NCBI GenBank assembly: GCA_019057385.1
Contig: JAHQJS010000004.1
Span: 1,012,727-1,076,726 of the forward strand
Reading direction: 5' to 3'
Length of the DNA stretch: 64,000 nt
Source: Candidatus Borrarchaeum weybense
GTDB taxonomy: Archaea; Asgardarchaeota; Sifarchaeia; Borrarchaeales; Borrarchaeaceae
In this document: positions 53,276 to 60,824 of the stretch, piece by piece
How the letters are laid out: each line of letters opens with the position of its first letter
How positions within the stretch are numbered: the first letter of the stretch is position 1
The notes under the pieces: model-generated
What the model was told of the DNA's origin: nothing
The model's input: only the letters and a program-made list of their open reading frames with translations
The model's database searches: none
Translations under genes and position numbers: made by a program

Positions 53276-53830
53276 ATGGTTATCAAGAGAGTTTTAAAAG
53301 AAGGTCTGCCTGTACTTTTCTTAGTCGCTATAGGGGGTACTCTCACTGGGTTTATTTTAACTAGAATGGAATCGTATCTTCAATCTATTGCTGGCTTGTT
53401 CGTTATACTTCCTGCGCTGTTTGCGCTGCGTGGAAATATAAGCGCATCATTAGGGTCACGTATCGGCTCAGGTTTTGCCACAGGCGCTATAAAATCAGAA
53501 CTTTTTGGAAATAAAGAACTTTTTGAGAATATAAAAGCATCAGTCCTGTTATCTACAGTTCTTTCAGCTGCAGCTGGTGTGATTGCTGTGATTTTCTTAT
53601 TTGTTTATGGAATAAGCGGCATAAATCCTGTCTTGATATTTCTTATTGCGCTTTTTGGAGGGTCAATCAGTGGATTAATTTCTCCGTTATTTACTACTCT
53701 CTTAGCAAGCATAGCATTTAGAAGAGGTCTCGATATTGACAATATCTTAAATCCTGTTATTACCGTAACGGGTGATATTCTTACTATATCGTGTATATTT
53801 CTAGCTATTTTACTTGTTATTGGACTCTAG
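53276..53830 (+). CDS. MgtE/SLC41 magnesium transporter membrane domain, gene 1
   Basis: PALFALRGNI..LGSR, GLDIDN..PVITVTGD. Confidence 0.88.
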   Translation: MVIKRVLKEGLPVLFLVAIGGTLTGFILTRMESYLQSIAGLFVILPALFALRGNISASLGSRIGSGFATGAIKSELFGNKELFENIKASVLLSTVLSAAAGVIAVIFLFVYGISGINPVLIFLIALFGGSISGLISPLFTTLLASIAFRRGLDIDNILNPVITVTGDILTISCIFLAILLVIGL

Positions 53831-54400
53831 GTGAAAGTTATGCAAGTCTATAATGTTCGACGAATTGTTAGGGAAAGCGTTTTCGTCATTTTAATCTGTA
53901 TAGTTCTAGACTTGCAGGCAGGGATCATACTTGATTTAAATCTAAATTCTTTTCTTCAGTGGACTGCTTTACTTCTTTTAATTCCTTCATACCTAGCTAT
54001 GGGTGGAAATATTGGAATTATATTAGGATCAAGGTTATCTTCTGCGCTTTATCTGGGTACAATAGAGCCAAACTTCTCACAGTGGACTAAAACAGCTAAA
54101 GAAAACTTGGCTGCCAGTTTGCTATTAGGACTAAGCGCCTTTATCTTCGTAGGTATGATCACATTTGTTGTTTCAGTATTTCTAAACTTAAGTTTTCCTG
54201 ATATCGGTCGGCTACTTCTACTAACTATAGTTTCGGGTTTTCTTCTGATTGTTTGTTTGTCTTTGTTAACATTTTTCACAGCGATCTTAGCATTTCGTCG
54301 GGGATTGGATCCAGATAACATTATTGCCCCAATAATTGCAACCTCTGGTGATTTAATTGGAGCTGTAATTTTTGTGGCGTTGCTTCCTTTATTATTTTAG
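53831..54400 (+). CDS. MgtE/SLC41 magnesium transporter membrane domain, gene 2
   Basis: MGGNIG..LGSRLSSAL, GLDPDN..PIIATSGD. Confidence 0.88.
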   Translation: MKVMQVYNVRRIVRESVFVILICIVLDLQAGIILDLNLNSFLQWTALLLLIPSYLAMGGNIGIILGSRLSSALYLGTIEPNFSQWTKTAKENLAASLLLGLSAFIFVGMITFVVSVFLNLSFPDIGRLLLLTIVSGFLLIVCLSLLTFFTAILAFRRGLDPDNIIAPIIATSGDLIGAVIFVALLPLLF

Positions 54401-54494
54401 ATTTCTATTCTTAGTTTCAAAATTAAGTATAATATGATTCTCAGGCGCTCCTTCAATCAACCAGAATTAAAAACCTTCTTTAGACAGCATGAAC

Positions 54495-55133
54495 CTACTT
54501 CATGGGAAGTGTATGAACGATTTTCTTTAGACGTTCATGCCCATCTTCAGGTCCACGGATTATCAAAAGGTCTCCTGATAAAATTATAGTATTTGCATTC
54601 GGCCCATATATCCACTTTCTACCTCTCTTGATAGCGATAACTCGTGTCCCGAGAGTAGAATGTAATCTTAAATCTCCTAGTGTTTTTTGATCTACTAGAG
54701 AGTCTGGTTCAACTCTCACCCTAAAAATTTGCTCATCCGCATCAGCTAAGGCGCTTGCAATAACCGGATGGACGTCCAGTTTTCGCAATATTATTTCGAC
54801 GATCTGATCTGCAGCGTTAGAAATGTTTTCAGCGGCAGTTGCTAACTGTAAAATCCCCACAAGCTGTTCCGCATCTTCTTTGTCACGTGCGGCTAGCATG
54901 GCCATCATGGTTATCTGATATTTCAGTTTATCCATTTCCTCTTCGAGTTCATGAACTTCTTCAGCAAGCTCCTTGTTATTAAATAATACAGCAGAGTATG
55001 CTAAGTCCACTATCAGTTCACTTATATCCTTCATCTCTGTCAAAATTTGCTTGATTCCCATTGGCTCGTATTTTACGGGCTCTTTAATATCTTCAAGCTC
55101 TTCAATTATCTCTTCGTTACTTCCTTCAGACAA
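54495..55133 (-). CDS. PhoU plus TrkA-C (RCK_C) domain protein
   Basis: EMKDISELIVDLAYSAV, ENISNAA, VIAIKRG..P. Confidence 0.88.
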   Translation of the reverse strand: MSEGSNEEIIEELEDIKEPVKYEPMGIKQILTEMKDISELIVDLAYSAVLFNNKELAEEVHELEEEMDKLKYQITMMAMLAARDKEDAEQLVGILQLATAAENISNAADQIVEIILRKLDVHPVIASALADADEQIFRVRVEPDSLVDQKTLGDLRLHSTLGTRVIAIKRGRKWIYGPNANTIILSGDLLIIRGPEDGHERLKKIVHTLPMK

Positions 55134-55381: not shown

Positions 55382-55873
55382 TTAAATCTCTTTTTGTCGT
55401 TCTTTTCTTTCATAATGTTTTTCTGCCTTTTCTCTTATCAGTTGAACATATTCATTTGCAGTTATCAGGTTTGATAAATCAGACTCTAAGTTATTGGCTT
55501 TTATCTTAAGAATCCAACCCTCTTTATACGCCGATTTGTTAACAATTTCTGGAGACGCTTCAAGTTTTTCATTTATTGCGACTATAGCTCCCCCAACAGC
55601 TGGGATTATATCGAGCACTGTTTTTACTGATTCAAGTGATCCAATCTCTTCTCCAGGAATGACCTCATCGCCAACTTGTTTCTCAAGTTCGAGAAACAAA
55701 ATATCGCTCAAAATCGTTTGAAAATAATCAGTTGCACCTATGACAACTATTTCATCATCTTTAGATACCCACAAGTCATCTTTTGAGTAGAATAAATCCT
55801 TAGGAAATTTCAAAATGAATTTTTCGATAGTAACCTTGAATTTATCTTCTTCTTCAACTACATTGAAGATCAT
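55382..55873 (-). CDS. GcvH-like lipoyl carrier protein
   Basis: IGATDY, ESVKT lipoyl-Lys motif, PEIVN..Y..GW; extra N-terminal KFILKFP segment. Confidence 0.9.
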   Translation of the reverse strand: MIFNVVEEEDKFKVTIEKFILKFPKDLFYSKDDLWVSKDDEIVVIGATDYFQTILSDILFLELEKQVGDEVIPGEEIGSLESVKTVLDIIPAVGGAIVAINEKLEASPEIVNKSAYKEGWILKIKANNLESDLSNLITANEYVQLIREKAEKHYERKERQKEI

Positions 55874-55886
55874 AATATTCCCAACC

Positions 55887-56333
55887 TTATTCGTCTTTTG
55901 GCCTTATGTCCAGCAAGATTTCATCCACTTTTTTAGCAGTTAATTCTGCAATTCTGCGAGCTAGTTTCATCCCGTTGTTTCCTAATTCAACTACATCTTC
56001 TGGATTCAACTTGATATCCATTTCTTTCATAACTTTTTTTACATCTATTACAGCTGAAGGTTTATCGCTGTATTTTTCAGTGCCAAGAGAAGAACACCGT
56101 TTTTCACACCCATCTAAGCAAATAGTAGGAAAGAATTTCGCAAAATTTTGTTCTCCTTCATCCCCTGCAAGAAATAACGGTAAGCACATTATTACTGTAC
56201 TTTCAGGTAACTCCTCGACAACAAGACGCGCTGCTATTCGTGTTACAGTCCCCTCTGGGATTGCTTCACCACTACAAGCGATAATCCCGACCTTTGTAGG
56301 CCTCATAGTTTCAAGAAAATCTGGCATAAGCAA
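55887..56333 (-). CDS. DGC-domain putative metal-binding protein
   Basis: IACSG, MCLP, LDGCEKRC. Confidence 0.88.
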   Translation of the reverse strand: MLMPDFLETMRPTKVGIIACSGEAIPEGTVTRIAARLVVEELPESTVIMCLPLFLAGDEGEQNFAKFFPTICLDGCEKRCSSLGTEKYSDKPSAVIDVKKVMKEMDIKLNPEDVVELGNNGMKLARRIAELTAKKVDEILLDIRPKDE

Positions 56334-56342
56334 ACTTCCTTA

Positions 56343-56750
56343 CTAATTACACTCAAGAAGTTTATCTACTTCTTCGGCAACCCTTTCTGCTACTTTTCGT
56401 GCAAGTTTCTTCCCATTTTCGTCTAAGAACGTTACTTGTTTTGTACGGAACTCTTTATTTTCTCTTAGTACGTCCATGACCATAACAGATGCGTCTGAGG
56501 TACGTCCGATAGATCGTTCAACATCTTTGAAAGCGCAAGCTTTCGCACATCCATCAATGGAAATCACAAAATTGTTTTTAGTGAGATCTAGAGCTTCTTT
56601 ATCCGCTATCTGAAGCAAAGGCAGACAAAAAGTTTTAGTTTTGTCAGTTCGTAGTTCATTAACAACGATATATGTTGCTTGCCTCGCTACCGTTCCGAAA
56701 GATTTTCCAATCCCGCTGCAGGGCAAAATAACCGCTTTTTTTAAAATCAT
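56343..56750 (-). CDS. DGC-domain putative metal-binding protein
   Basis: LPCSG, FCLP, IDGCAKAC. Confidence 0.88.
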   Translation of the reverse strand: MILKKAVILPCSGIGKSFGTVARQATYIVVNELRTDKTKTFCLPLLQIADKEALDLTKNNFVISIDGCAKACAFKDVERSIGRTSDASVMVMDVLRENKEFRTKQVTFLDENGKKLARKVAERVAEEVDKLLECN

Positions 56751-56767
56751 TGTCTTTCAATCATCCT

Positions 56768-57154
56768 TTAAGCAGAGAGAATTAATTCCTTAAGTTCTTC
56801 ACGTTTCGGCACACGCCCCATTGAAACAACTTCACCATTGAATACAACTACAGGAGTAAGAAAAATTTCCTGTTCCTTAGCTAATTCAACATAGGGTGCG
56901 AGTTTTTCGTCAATGGTTTTGATATCACGTTGTTCGAACAATTTACGGTAGTCGAGATCAATTCCCATTTTCTCGGCAAATACTTCTGCTTCAACTATTT
57001 TTCCGTATTTTTCTGCTTCTTCAGAGCCAGCGTAAATTCGCTCGATTTCGATGTTCATACCCCGTTCTCTTTTTAACTGTTTTAGCATCCTATGAACTCT
57101 GTGGCAACGAATGCAAGGCGGGTATGGTCCAATTACTTCTACTTTAAGCACCAT
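56768..57154 (-). CDS. Thioredoxin-fold protein
   Basis: PPCIRC, TPVVVFNGE..GRVP. Confidence 0.85.
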   Translation of the reverse strand: MVLKVEVIGPYPPCIRCHRVHRMLKQLKRERGMNIEIERIYAGSEEAEKYGKIVEAEVFAEKMGIDLDYRKLFEQRDIKTIDEKLAPYVELAKEQEIFLTPVVVFNGEVVSMGRVPKREELKELILSA

Positions 57155-57156
57155 GT

Positions 57157-57459
57157 TTATTCTTCTCCTAGTACCTCTAATATAGCTGCTTTGAATTCTT
57201 CTTTATGCGGCACTTCACCTTCGGCTATAATCATATCTCCAACTACAATTGTGGGCGCAAGTTGTACGTCCCATTCTTCAGCTTCGGGAGTCAGACAGCT
57301 GATCCTGCGTATATTTACCTTATCTCCAAAATATTCATCTTTTATCTTCTTTGCTACTTTTGCTGCCCGATGGCAAACTGTGCAAGGCGGTTCAGTTTCG
57401 AAAATAATCACATCAATTGGTCCAGACATTATTTTTCCTCCATCATCGATTAGTCCCAT
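57157..57459 (-). CDS. Thioredoxin/glutaredoxin-like protein
   Basis: PPCTVC, APTIVV..GEVP; probable start at MSGP. Confidence 0.85.
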   Translation of the reverse strand: MGLIDDGGKIMSGPIDVIIFETEPPCTVCHRAAKVAKKIKDEYFGDKVNIRRISCLTPEAEEWDVQLAPTIVVGDMIIAEGEVPHKEEFKAAILEVLGEE

Positions 57460-57719
57460 TCTAGTTCGATATCAATCATTTTCTTCATCGTTTCTCTGCT
57501 AGGTGTTAATCCTATAATAAAATATGTTTCATTGATAACGATTGCTGGCGTAAGTTCGATGTGGTATTCTTCAAATTTTTCCTTTGCTGATGGTCCGATG
57601 TACTTTTCTACTTCTACTTTATCTCCGTATTCTTTTACAATCTCATCCACGAAATTCAAACAAATCTCACATTCTCCACAAACTGGCTCTCCAGAAAAAA
57701 ATTCTATGAGAACGGTCAT
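57450..57719 (-). CDS. Thioredoxin-like protein
   Basis: CGECEIC, TPAIVIN. Confidence 0.82.
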   Translation of the reverse strand: MTVLIEFFSGEPVCGECEICLNFVDEIVKEYGDKVEVEKYIGPSAKEKFEEYHIELTPAIVINETYFIIGLTPSRETMKKMIDIELEWD

Positions 57720-57736
57720 AGTACGCTACCTCCGCT

Positions 57737-58810
57737 TTAAATTGTTGGAGAAATGGTCGCTTTTTCCTCCTCGATATCTTTCATGGATCGCTTGTGAGCA
57801 ATGTAGGCACCTATAACGGCGACTGCCAGAAGTCCAAGAAGAATTATGTCATGATATTCACCGTAAAGATTGCCTCCGACTGCTGTACCGGCTGTAGTGA
57901 ACTCAAGCAATATTGGGAAGAATAGAACTCCAAGTAATATTGAGAAACCATAGACTCCTAGGGCATAGACTAATGTTCGCTTCCATTTGAGGACACGTAC
58001 GACTACCATAAGAGTAGCGATACTAATTGTTGGTGCTGCCAGCAGAAATACTAATGCTGCGCCTGGGCTCATCCCGAGTGCTAAAAATGTGGCCGCCAAT
58101 GGAATTTCAACGGGAGGAATGACAAACAAGGGGATTCCTATAAATGCCGCGAGCAGATAAGCGGTCAAACCTGTTGAGCCCATAGTACTTTCAATCCAGA
58201 CCGGTGGTAAAACTGTTCTTAATAATGCCGCTACGAACACACCTACCACAATGAGCCAGAGTATTTCTTTGATATAGTCCCAGGTGTACGTCATAGCCTT
58301 TTTCATTCTCGAGACAAAAGATACAACGACTTTTGGTTTCATGCGCCGTACTTTCCGTACTTTCTGTGCCTCTTCTTGCTCTTCCTTGCCAAAAACGAGG
58401 TCTACAACGATACCAACTGCTATTGCAATAAGAACTGCACCAATAATTCTTGCAATTCCTAAACCGACATTTAACAATCCCATGGTGAGTAGAACACCTA
58501 CTGGATTTATAGATGGACCTGCGATAAGGAACGTAACAGCGGGACCGATACCTGCACCTCTTCGTCTTATACCTGCAAATAATGGAAGTATCGCACAAGA
58601 ACATACGCCTAATAATGCACCAGCGGCGGTTGCTGTGACATAAGCATACCATCTTCCACTACCCAAGAGTCGTAAGAAGGTGTCCCTCGAAATAAATTCG
58701 CTAAAAATACCCGCCACAATGAACCCTACAGCTATACACCACCAGGCGTGGGAAAAATACTCGATTGCTATGATCCAAGTGCCAGTCAATATTTCTACAA
58801 TAGTTACCAT
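57737..58810 (-). CDS. DUF318/ArsP-family permease
   Basis: GVCSCAILP, TFLIAGPSINP, GAALVFLLAAP. Confidence 0.88.
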   Translation of the reverse strand: MVTIVEILTGTWIIAIEYFSHAWWCIAVGFIVAGIFSEFISRDTFLRLLGSGRWYAYVTATAAGALLGVCSCAILPLFAGIRRRGAGIGPAVTFLIAGPSINPVGVLLTMGLLNVGLGIARIIGAVLIAIAVGIVVDLVFGKEEQEEAQKVRKVRRMKPKVVVSFVSRMKKAMTYTWDYIKEILWLIVVGVFVAALLRTVLPPVWIESTMGSTGLTAYLLAAFIGIPLFVIPPVEIPLAATFLALGMSPGAALVFLLAAPTISIATLMVVVRVLKWKRTLVYALGVYGFSILLGVLFFPILLEFTTAGTAVGGNLYGEYHDIILLGLLAVAVIGAYIAHKRSMKDIEEEKATISPTI

Positions 58811-58837
58811 TATTTTAGATCCTCACATAAGTAATAT

Positions 58838-58863
58838 ATTATATCGTTATATGGCGATATAAT
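58838..58863. promoter_or_regulatory. ArsR/SmtB-like palindromic operator upstream of the permease operon
   Basis: ATTATATCG-N8-CGATATAAT perfect 9-bp arms, 28 nt before the start codon. Confidence 0.6.
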
Positions 58864-58967: not shown

Positions 58968-59111
58968 TCATTTAACAAGCAAAAAGGTAAGAGCAATCAA
59001 GAGCAATATGTTTCCGAGGCAAAAAATAGTCTCTAATTGTCCAGTTGGAGATTCACACCACCTGAATAGGCAACCAAAACCCAGAATTATAGCTGCAATA
59101 GCTATACTCAC
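58968..59111 (-). CDS. Small hydrophobic ORF (47 aa), possible relic
   Basis: AGGAG SD plus GTG; MSIAIAAIILGFGCLF...LLLIALTFLLVK*, with ARKNLERE* continuing past the TGA. Confidence 0.35.
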   Translation of the reverse strand: MSIAIAAIILGFGCLFRWCESPTGQLETIFCLGNILLLIALTFLLVK

Positions 59112-59271: not shown

Positions 59272-60135
59272 TTAAATGGGAATTCCAAGCCAAGCAAAGA
59301 CCCCAATCAATCGTAAGCCTACATAGATATATAGGATTGCAAGTAAAATTTTGAGTTGCTTTGGCTGTATCCTATGAGTCATTGAGGCACCTAATTGGGC
59401 AGTTATAACACTGGTAGATGCGAGGGTTAAAAATGCAATTAAGTTAAACCAGCCGAAGCTATACGGAGGATATGCTGCAGTCTGTTGTAGAGATCCTAAA
59501 ATGCCAAAAGATACGGCACCCACAGAAGAGCCTATCACCATAGTACTTATCGAAATAAGGACTGCCGTATGTATGGGAATCTCAAGTAACGTATTTAGTA
59601 CCGGCATATAAACAAGGCCACCTCCAATGCCCATGAAATGGGCGACACCTCCAGATCCGAGTCCCCCTGCAACATATTTTTCTTTGTTTAACTCTTTTAA
59701 TTCCGCAACCTGTTTTGGTCTAGCCGTCATAAATCGATATGCCCCTATTATACATGCAATTCCGAAGAGTATTTTTAAAAGATAACCTGGGGCGAAGTAT
59801 GCTCCAACACTTCCAATAACAGATCCAATCCCGACAGGGATTGCATAGTATAAGTAATGTTGTTTCGGAAATGAAATTTTTTTGCTATGTTTCCAAGCAC
59901 CACTAAATGCTGTCGGCACTACTACTGCCATATTGGTTCCAAATGCGATTTTTACTGCAATATCAAGAGGCACGCCCATAAGTTCATTAAAACAAAAGAT
60001 CATCACAGGCACCATAATAAAACAGCCACCAACTCCAAAAAAAGCGCTTACAAATCCAACTAAAGCGCCAGCGATAAGTAAAAACGCAATAATTTCCGGT
60101 GTAAAAATTGCTGCCATATTTCTCACCAAATTCAA
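59272..60135 (-). CDS. TauE/SafE sulfite/sulfur-compound exporter
   Basis: FFGVGGCFIMVP, GIGGGLVYMP, AFGTN. Confidence 0.9.
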   Translation of the reverse strand: MNLVRNMAAIFTPEIIAFLLIAGALVGFVSAFFGVGGCFIMVPVMIFCFNELMGVPLDIAVKIAFGTNMAVVVPTAFSGAWKHSKKISFPKQHYLYYAIPVGIGSVIGSVGAYFAPGYLLKILFGIACIIGAYRFMTARPKQVAELKELNKEKYVAGGLGSGGVAHFMGIGGGLVYMPVLNTLLEIPIHTAVLISISTMVIGSSVGAVSFGILGSLQQTAAYPPYSFGWFNLIAFLTLASTSVITAQLGASMTHRIQPKQLKILLAILYIYVGLRLIGVFAWLGIPI

Positions 60136-60260: not shown

Positions 60261-60824
60261 TCACTTTCGATGTTGTAACCTTTTTATCATCATTATCATG
60301 GATTTTGCTAGATATCTTGCACTTTTGATAGCGTGAATATCACTCGTGATCTCTCCTTTGCTAAATGCGAACCCTACGACACCTCTGTAGCTTACAGTGA
60401 TTTCATGTTTTAGAAAAAAAGAGTGGATAGCTTGAATTGCAGTTTCGTGTCCAAATCGTCTTCCTACAACAACACACCCGCCTACTTTTCCCTTTAGTTT
60501 TCTTCGCATGCACCACGTTCTATCTATAAATATTTTAGTCTGTGCTGTTACGTTGTTAAAATAGACGGGGGAAGCTATCAGAATCCCATCAGACGCAAGC
60601 AGTTTTGGATAGATTTCTTCCATTTCATCCTTAATAGCACATTTTCCATTTTCTACACATATCCAACAACTATCACACGGATGGATTTTAAATTCTGACA
60701 ATCTAATAAGATCAACATTGGCTCCAAGTTTTTCTGCAGTTTTTAAAAATACATCAACTAAGTATTCTGTATTTCCTTCCTTTCTTGGGCTTCCAGAAAT
60801 TGCTAGAATTTGCAAATATGTCAC
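60261..60824 (-). CDS. Iron-sulfur flavoprotein / multimeric flavodoxin
   Basis: GSPRKEGNT, CDSCWIC....C, ASPVYF, KIFIDR. Confidence 0.92.
   Translation of the reverse strand: MTYLQILAISGSPRKEGNTEYLVDVFLKTAEKLGANVDLIRLSEFKIHPCDSCWICVENGKCAIKDEMEEIYPKLLASDGILIASPVYFNNVTAQTKIFIDRTWCMRRKLKGKVGGCVVVGRRFGHETAIQAIHSFFLKHEITVSYRGVVGFAFSKGEITSDIHAIKSARYLAKSMIMMIKRLQHRK

Follow-up and report, generated by a model that had tools for sequence, protein, structure and literature searches.

Protein-bound lipoic acid is a classic cellular target of trivalent arsenic, and ArsD, a small cysteine protein that folds like thioredoxin, binds As(III) for delivery to the efflux machinery. In Pseudodesulfovibrio mercurii ND132, an ArsR5-ArsP-ArsE(Thioredoxin_3)-DGC operon is up-regulated by arsenic, and Pfam, as quoted in the same study, rates the four cysteines of the DGC domain a probable zinc site (bioRxiv 10.1101/2022.10.17.512643). 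A GcvH-like lipoyl carrier is at work in the sHdr-LbpA system of sulfur oxidation, which has its own lipoate-assembly machinery, sLpl(AB)-LipS1/S2 (Cao et al. 2018, PMC6067878; Tanabe et al. 2023, PMC10332631). Here, we analyse an operon that combines parts of these systems. It lies at 55382-58863, together with its promoter palindrome, in a 64,000-nt stretch of Candidatus Borrarchaeum weybense DNA (GenBank assembly GCA_019057385.1, contig JAHQJS010000004.1, positions 1,012,727 to 1,076,726 of the forward strand; hereafter the window), and it encodes an ArsP_1-family permease, three thioredoxin-like proteins (Trx1, Trx2, and Trx3), two DGC proteins (DGC_A and DGC_B), and a GcvH-like lipoyl carrier. 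The window operon is a local, lineage-specific form of a widespread module.

Results

A GcvH-DGC module is conserved in Asgard archaea and beyond

The minus-strand run at 55382-58810 consists of seven real open reading frames separated by gaps of 2-17 nt, with one overlap of 10 nt, so that the tight packing described in the initial annotation holds, and Pfam bears out the protein families named there. Three of the seven products are DGC_A (56343-56750, minus strand, 135 aa; Pfam PF08859, 52.4 bits), DGC_B (55887-56333, minus strand, 148 aa; PF08859, 53.8 bits), and the GcvH lipoyl carrier (55382-55873, minus strand, 163 aa; PF01597 (GCV_H), 106.8 bits), whose ESVK motif contains the lipoyl Lys84. 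The block Trx3-DGC_A-DGC_B-GcvH is syntenic at 42-55% protein identity (tblastn) in two more species of the genus, which also have ArsP, Trx1, and Trx2, in Candidatus Sifarchaeum (G009), and in four genomes of a different Asgard family (f8). Across three Asgard lineages, this synteny persists down to 42-50% identity. A Helarchaeota contig (L121) reproduces the gene order of the window exactly, that is, ArsP, Trx1, Trx2, Trx3, DGC, DGC, and GcvH, with a divergent ArsR gene in addition.

We searched 201 Asgard genomes and found DGC genes in 55 of them. GcvH is adjacent or fused to DGC in at least 33 of these 55 genomes by coordinates, and in at least 36 once the loci were inspected. Most such genomes carry GcvH within a fusion protein of 280-340 aa, in which a third DGC domain makes up the N-terminal half and GcvH the C-terminal half. 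In the Asgard consensus, the genes run in the order Cys-rich 129-aa protein, small ferredoxin-like protein, DGC::GcvH fusion, DGC_A, and DGC_B, alongside ArsR, a 95-aa CxC protein, and a carrier of the SBF family. In an hhalign comparison (probability 68%, E 5e-5), the 129-aa protein is similar to the domain ahead of the FAD domain in the HdrA-like protein of the B. weybense genome, and ferredoxin-like and HdrA-N-like Fe-S partner proteins occur in most module architectures. The 95-aa CxC protein was not found in the B. weybense genome.

The wider scan covered one genome per species and used the DGC_A motif [IV][LI]PCSG[IV]GK[VAS] as its seed. It yielded 397 confirmed stretches, the best 80 of which were annotated with hidden Markov models built from the Asgard loci. 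These 80 loci come from Promethearchaeota, Freyarchaeota, Helarchaeota, Heimdallarchaeota, Bathyarchaeia, and Nitrososphaeria among the archaea, and from Chloroflexota, Bacillota (Pelotomaculum, Syntrophomonas), Deferrimicrobium, and others. The results show that GcvH lies within 1.5 kb of the DGC genes in 76 of the 80 loci and that 21 loci have it fused to a DGC domain. Of the four loci that lack a near GcvH, three are contigs that end there, and the fourth (L077) has its GcvH within the same cluster, roughly 3 kb away from the DGC pair. Within 5 kb of the DGC genes, ArsR is present in 64/80 loci and an SBF-family (Acr3-like) carrier in 51/80, while Trx3 is present in 12/80 and ArsP in 7/80. 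The conserved core is therefore GcvH plus the DGC pair, and the permease and the three thioredoxins are lineage-specific additions. A conserved neighbourhood of GcvH, DGC, thioredoxin, and the DUF318 permease, the prospect raised by the initial annotation, thus stands for the linkage and fusion of GcvH with DGC but not for ArsP or Trx3. Literature searches aimed at the GcvH-DGC module gave no description of it, in agreement with the earlier remark that the arrangement is apparently undescribed.

Two further features recur around the module. In the f8 family, the Trx3-DGC-DGC-GcvH block has DsrE/DsrF/DsrH-like genes (L045:8418-9495, L043:10826-11191) convergent to it. Several lineages encode, near the module, a 194-aa protein that combines a TBP-like N-terminal part with a PF04060 Fe-S motif.

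The module GcvH forms its own clade, and the genome has no GcvP or GcvT gene

The window GcvH aligns end to end with solved H-protein structures (1onl, 3a8i; E 1e-25), including the ESVK hairpin, and the lipoyl motif noticed at first reading is thereby upheld. The B. weybense genome (4.18 Mb, 8 contigs) encodes eight GcvH-family proteins, none of them linked to glycine cleavage. Neither GcvP (PF02347) nor GcvT (PF01571) has a match anywhere in this genome, whose estimated completeness is 100%, and control genomes did give matches. Therefore, none of the eight GcvH proteins can serve glycine cleavage, and a canonical glycine cleavage role for the window GcvH was rejected. The initial annotation had called this GcvH an orphan with no P, T, or L gene nearby. 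The absence of P and T extends to the whole genome, but an Lpd-like gene does adjoin another GcvH paralog on contig C5, and the orphan state is not peculiar to the operon, as all eight genes lack a linkage to glycine cleavage.

The other seven paralogs are located at C5:418807, C6:372276, C6:688484, C6:678497, C4:332873, C2:2455, and C7:820950. Their contexts include a position beside an Lpd-like flavoprotein, one within an HdrA/HdrC/HdrB-like set, one after a CCG protein near a NiFe hydrogenase gene, one near an FAD-linked oxidase, and one directly after an ArsR gene. A lipoate-assembly cluster is found on the operon's contig (C4:1146826-1150742), 75 kb off and not adjacent to the operon; it encodes a radical SAM protein, an unassigned protein of 159 aa, the catalytic domain and the C-terminal domain of LplA, and another radical SAM protein. 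Because this cluster is present in the genome, lipoylation of the window GcvH is plausible.

We next placed the GcvH proteins in a tree of 117 domains, comprising 94 module-linked domains and 23 others, among them the seven other paralogs and, as the outgroup, GcvH from E. coli. All module-linked GcvH proteins fall in one clade (SH-aLRT 97) that excludes the E. coli GcvH and the Lpd-linked paralog, in a quick search with SH-aLRT as its sole support test and with a single experimentally canonical sequence. The clade also takes in the ArsR-linked paralog of contig C7 and one Chloroflexia GcvH located 3 kb from its DGC pair, and it is separate from the remaining paralogs of the same genome, the Hdr-linked ones included. 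Within the clade, the window GcvH groups with the proteins of Sifarchaeum, Helarchaeota, and family f8 and with the C7 paralog. All 96 clade members have the lipoyl lysine, and the clade has two conserved extras, an N-terminal strand ((D/E)KF.F.V) and a C-terminal helix. The placement apart from the canonical GcvH, which the initial annotation had anticipated, is thus obtained in a tree that leaves out LbpA and GcvH-L references.

The DGC proteins form a constant pair with four conserved cysteines

Both DGC proteins score above the Pfam cut-off and have four conserved cysteines, including those of the DGC motif. They are Cys11, 42, 68, and 72 in DGC_A (PCSGIGK...CLP...DGCxxxC) and Cys20, 50, 76, and 80 in DGC_B (ACSGE..EG...CLPLF...DGCxxxC). 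Across 41 homologs, C11, G13, G67, C68, and C72 are kept and C42 is nearly always kept (DGC_A numbering). The AlphaFold 2 model of DGC_A (pLDDT 95.9) is a flavodoxin-like alpha/beta domain in which the conserved cysteines sit just after strands 1 and 3. A Foldseek search with this model returned nothing at E ≤ 0.001. The best match of DGC_A in VIA-align is an uncharacterised Wolinella protein (3pu6, Z 8.8), amid generic alpha/beta folds. Chains of the low-molecular-weight phosphatase/ArsC type gave only weak generic matches (E 0.02-0.04, TM 0.36-0.52), and we make no claim that DGC acts as a reductase of the ArsC kind. No significant match came from a profile search against PDB sequences; those obtained, at Fe-S CxxxC motifs (E 1-2), may hint at a cluster site on DGC but are not evidence for one. 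DGC and the Cys-rich 129-aa partner protein have no detectable relationship (hhalign probability 3%).

DGC_B follows DGC_A in every related locus examined, and the B. weybense genome has DGC genes in two pairs only. The constant pairing of A and B, together with the third, fused copy, suggests a heteromeric DGC complex that may work on the lipoyl arm. Contact between DGC and the lipoyl carrier is indicated by the DGC::GcvH fusion, which is evidence of the Rosetta-stone type; the model of the fusion has a pTM of 0.57, and the packing of its domains is uncertain.

The second DGC A/B-like pair (C4:1078120-1078947; L009:11394-12221) has extra cysteines and begins about 1.4 kb past the end of the window. 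It lies downstream of the gene for a 305-aa regulator with multiple winged helix-turn-helix domains and directly upstream of cdhA/cdhB, which encode the alpha and epsilon subunits of CO dehydrogenase/acetyl-CoA synthase (L009:12639-15533). This pair and its operator are kept in two other species of the genus.

A candidate ArsR operator recurs at three promoters

An operator-like palindrome, ATTATATCG-N8-CGATATAAT (58838-58863), is located between a TTATAA (TATA-like) box and the ArsP start, just after the former and 27 nt before the latter. It is perfect (9+8+9), as the initial annotation had it, and unique in the genome. Its core, TATATCG-N8-CGATATA, occurs at four genome sites with at most one mismatch, compared with 0-3 in shuffled genomes. 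Three of the four core sites lie 14-41 bp before gene starts, namely those of the ArsP operon, of the second DGC pair (C4:1078120; 14 bp), and of an ArsR-GcvH pair on contig C7 (C7:820518, C7:820950). In two other species of the genus, the corresponding three promoters retain these sites within diverged flanks. The fourth near-perfect site (C7:457062) follows the 3' end of a 448-aa gene and is probably there by chance. A TATCG-N8-CGATATA sequence 517 bp upstream of the lipoate-assembly cluster has two mismatches to the 7+7 core and was not counted.

The ArsR at C7:820518-820829 has the motif EKCQCEI and is followed by the GcvH paralog at C7:820950 (GcvH2). Because the core of the palindrome is repeated, with conservation in three species, ahead of both the second DGC pair and this CxC-containing ArsR with its GcvH, the window operon is probably part of an ArsR regulon. 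In the simplest reading, this ArsR probably binds the candidate operator at the three promoters, regulating itself and repressing both DGC units. A second ArsR (KLCVCEF) adjoins the Acr3-like gene of the genome (SSPCTAMV motif), 186 kb away.

The surroundings of the ArsR-GcvH2 pair hold several other genes. FMN reductase and DJ-1/PfpI genes lie beside the pair, and this FMN reductase, a paralog of the one encoded in the window, is convergent to the pair in all three species of the genus. A TnpB/Cas12f-like gene (OrfB_IS605 + TNB domain; C7:821415-822404, L052:5385-6374) is located between ArsR-GcvH2 and the convergent FMN reductase, whereas in the two sister species ArsR-GcvH2 and FMN reductase are adjacent without this insertion.

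We aligned 61 ArsR proteins, of which 39 lie within 1.5 kb of the module in the 80 loci and 22 come from the first Asgard loci. Nearly all of them have E-x-C-x-C-(D/E) in helix 3, the DNA-binding region, at the position of the As(III) site of classical ArsR and of the Cd, Pb, or Zn sites of its relatives. The SBF carriers keep a (R/P)C(I/T)AMV cysteine motif, and some read RCIAMV, the Acr3 signature. Judged from these motifs and gene positions, the module is probably under ArsR repressors of the thiophilic-metalloid (CxC) type and usually stands beside an Acr3-like or ArsP-like exporter.

Permease, thioredoxin-like proteins, and flanking genes

The permease (57737-58810, minus strand, 357 aa; Pfam PF03773, 189.9 bits) has a Cys70-Ser-Cys72 motif, and its ArsP_1 family has a single copy in the genome. 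Its best NCBIfam match is the SO_0444 Cu/Zn efflux family, at 170.7 bits with a cut-off of 300, followed by SaoE at 133.7 bits. The SO_0444 family and the window permease share the CSC motif.

Thioredoxin_3 genes are confined in this genome to the window operon, and all three matches to PF13192 are above the cut-off. Trx1 (57450-57719, minus strand, 89 aa; 44.2 bits) has the motif CGECEIC, which is identical in orthologs from Helarchaeota and from G020. The frame of Trx2 (57157-57459, minus strand, 100 aa; 27.2 bits; motif CTVC) overlaps that of Trx1 by the 10 nt given above, and Trx2 also has orthologs. Trx3 (56768-57154, minus strand, 128 aa; 49.4 bits) has an internal insertion and an invariant PPCIRC motif, and it matches the NCBIfam family TIGR00412 (MTH895/ArsE) at 37.5 bits, below the cut-off of 62. 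It is the thioredoxin-like gene that accompanies the unfused DGC-DGC-GcvH block, and its synteny holds within the genus as well as in Sifarchaeum (G009), Helarchaeota, and the Asgard family f8. Orthologs keep the motifs CGEC, CTVC, and CIRC as well as the cis-Pro loops TP(A/V/T)(I/V)V.

Upstream of the operon lies a TauE/SafE-family exporter gene (59272-60135, minus strand; PF01925, 135.1 bits), which had already been recognised and is possibly part of the same response. It is followed by the gene for an NADPH-dependent FMN reductase family protein (60261-60824, minus strand; PF03358, 106.1 bits), a possible electron source, and further upstream by an ABC-2 exporter pair and an Lrp-type regulator. 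TauE, at times with FMN_red, is also found near the module in a few other genomes (L055, L093, L117, L146; 3/80 loci). Between TauE and the ArsP promoter, a GTG-started frame of 47 codons (58968-59111, minus strand), with AAGGAG before its start, would encode a hydrophobic peptide containing three cysteines; G020 has a similar sequence in the 3' part of this region, and the family searches gave this frame no annotation. Oligo-T tracts are found downstream of the GcvH stop. The downstream flank (53276-55133), which is syntenic across the genus, holds a split MgtE-type transporter (two tandem half-size genes) and a PhoU/TrkA_C regulator-like gene.

Discussion

On balance, we lean towards reading the module as a metalloid-induced lipoyl/cysteine thiol relay that is coupled to efflux; this applies to the class of function, and our confidence in the individual steps is lower. 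In such a relay, As(III)- or Sb(III)-type compounds would free the ArsR repressor from the operator. Reducing equivalents would pass from the three CxxC thioredoxin-like proteins to the DGC_A/DGC_B pair in the lineage of the window, and from ferredoxin-like and HdrA-N-like proteins to this pair in most other lineages. The DGC pair would act on the lipoyl arm of GcvH (K84) and hold it as a dithiol. The swinging dithiol would then capture a trivalent metalloid, or reduce a pentavalent or organic form, and the dithiol product would be handed to the Cys-Ser-Cys-lined ArsP permease, or to an Acr3-like carrier, for export. We infer this dithiol-relay chemistry from sequence and gene context, together with the inducer, the direction of electron or metalloid transfer, the ligand of the DGC cysteines, and the exported substrate. 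The metalloid-type context that the initial annotation had proposed is borne out by the CxC sites of the ArsR proteins, the Acr3-like and ArsP carriers, and the shared operator.

Several observations weigh against a metalloid relay. No ArsR gene is adjacent to the operon within the window, and we infer the link between operator and ArsR from the autoregulatory placement of the palindrome. Helix-3 CxC sites of ArsR/SmtB members also sense Cd, Pb, and Zn. The permease is below the cut-off of every NCBIfam equivalog, and the best-scoring one is a Cu/Zn efflux family; the SBF carriers have acr3 as their best NCBIfam match, at 108.9 bits, far below the cut-off of 282.8. The DGC fold search returned generic alpha/beta matches only, and the four DGC cysteines could hold Zn, an Fe-S cluster, or As, or could form redox disulfides. 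The linkage figures apply to the DGC_A subfamily defined by the seed motif and not to all DGC proteins, and single DGC genes without GcvH do occur in the Asgard families f3 and f4. Finally, the TauE gene beside the operon and the DsrE/F/H-like genes beside the f8 orthologs fit sulfur chemistry.

The last point leads to the alternative that survives best, although we consider it unlikely, namely a system for sulfur trafficking or persulfides with a logic like that of sHdr-LbpA. Here, sulfane sulfur or electrons would travel on the lipoyl arm, with DGC and the thioredoxins as the relay, and TauE/ArsP would export sulfite or another sulfur compound. Some ArsR-family regulators are known to sense sulfur species, and BigR is among the weak NCBIfam matches, but the ArsR proteins of the module have the helix-3 CxC metal site and not the two-cysteine arrangement of sulfur sensors. 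TauE lies directly upstream of the operon and recurs with FMN_red next to DGC_B in the Freyarchaeota-type locus (L055; L093), and the DsrE/DsrF/DsrH-like genes are convergent to the f8 orthologs; across the 80 loci, however, the commonest partner is the Acr3-like carrier (51/80), whereas TauE is rare (3/80) and DsrE-like genes are found in only a few lineages. Other GcvH paralogs of the genome do lie inside Hdr-like gene sets, yet the module is without Hdr-like genes, and its GcvH clade stands apart from the Hdr-linked paralogs. LbpA itself, which resembles GcvH, has a proven part in sulfur oxidation (Cao et al. 2018, PMC6067878). The reactive-sulfur alternative included in the initial annotation is thus a weaker reading than the metalloid one.

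Slightly less probable still is the buffering or efflux of soft metals (Zn, Cd, Cu, Hg, Pb), in which the DGC proteins would be metal chaperones, assisted by the lipoyl dithiol and the thioredoxins as accessory ligands or reductants, with the ArsP_1 protein as the metal exporter. The probable zinc site that Pfam assigns to the four DGC cysteines (quoted in bioRxiv 10.1101/2022.10.17.512643) would suit chaperones of this kind, as would the position of the second DGC pair directly ahead of cdhA and cdhB, genes for Ni/Fe enzymes. The match of the permease to the SO_0444 Cu/Zn efflux family, with the CSC motif in common, and the use of helix-3 CxC sites in Cd, Pb, and Zn sensors point the same way. 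The usual partners of the module, however, are Acr3-like carriers and not P-type ATPases or CDF exporters, and the ArsP-Trx_3-DGC operon of P. mercurii responds to arsenic. A covalent lipoyl dithiol with Fe-S partner proteins also suggests redox chemistry over simple buffering. A general thiol-redox or peroxide defence, in which the lipoyl protein would serve to reduce a peroxidase or to repair oxidised thiols and regulation of the metalloid type would be incidental, is very improbable, for although lipoyl-dependent Ohr/OsmC peroxidases are known and the FMN reductase and DJ-1/PfpI genes stand beside ArsR-GcvH2, no peroxidase gene occurs in the operon or in the examined Asgard and Bathyarchaeia architectures, and the type of regulator and the efflux partners point to a small thiophilic ligand.

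Returning to the metalloid relay, a wider form of it can be put forward tentatively, in which protein-bound lipoate is a working part of a machine that handles arsenic and antimony in many anaerobic archaea and bacteria: an ArsR-induced GcvH-type carrier would offer its dihydrolipoyl arm to a heteromeric DGC complex, and the arm would reduce or chelate arsenic or antimony species for export by carriers of the Acr3 or ArsP type; we regard this as possible rather than probable. If true, it would be a new role for lipoate, the third non-classical role of the protein-bound form after sulfur oxidation and peroxide reduction. It would also give a first function to the DGC domain family and a role to a distinct GcvH-like clade found in several archaeal and bacterial phyla. 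In addition, it could explain how anaerobes without a recognisable ArsC beside their Acr3/ArsP genes cope with arsenic and antimony. The genome itself, with eight lipoyl carriers, several of them tied to Hdr-like or disulfide-reductase genes, and without a glycine cleavage system, indicates that lipoyl proteins may be general dithiol redox carriers, and partners of Hdr-like enzymes, in this Asgard lineage.

Comparison with known systems

Compared with the H protein of glycine cleavage, the window GcvH has the same fold and lipoyl-lysine hairpin, and it scores above the cut-off of NCBIfam NF002270 (125.7 bits, cut-off 117) but below that of the equivalog TIGR00527 (109.2 bits, cut-off 115.85). 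It differs in falling within a clade of its own, marked by an additional N-terminal strand and C-terminal helix, in being often fused to DGC in that clade, and in its genome without P and T proteins.

The resemblance to the sHdr-LbpA system lies in a GcvH-like lipoyl carrier outside glycine cleavage that is accompanied by cysteine-rich and Fe-S proteins and an ArsR-family regulator. The genomic cluster of LplA-N/LplA-C genes and two radical SAM genes is of the same type as sLpl(AB)-LipS1/S2. In contrast to sHdr-LbpA, no CCG/HdrA genes are found in the operon or in 100 related loci, and Hdr-like genes accompany other GcvH paralogs instead. The partners of the module are DGC, thioredoxin-like proteins, and metalloid-type carriers, and in the tree, which has no LbpA reference, the Hdr-linked paralogs of the genome fall outside its GcvH clade.

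The proposed relay also recalls the hand-off from ArsD to ArsA, which follows the same logic of a small cysteine protein delivering to efflux. The operon has no homolog of ArsD or ArsA, and its candidate carrier is a swinging-arm lipoyl dithiol with four-cysteine DGC domains. ArsC, another component of ars operons, is likewise absent from it.

The closest likeness in gene content is to the ars operon of P. mercurii ND132, as both unite an ArsP_1 permease with a thioredoxin-like protein of PF13192 and a DGC protein of PF08859; the predicted regulon of B. weybense would likewise be headed by an ArsR, one with a CxC site. Unlike the P. mercurii operon, the window operon has no adjacent ArsR gene; it encodes three thioredoxin-like proteins, both members of a DGC A/B pair, and a lipoyl carrier. 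The operon is otherwise a variant of the ars-type ArsP/Thioredoxin_3/DGC operons, and the lipoyl-DGC relay, if shown, would be its categorically new part.

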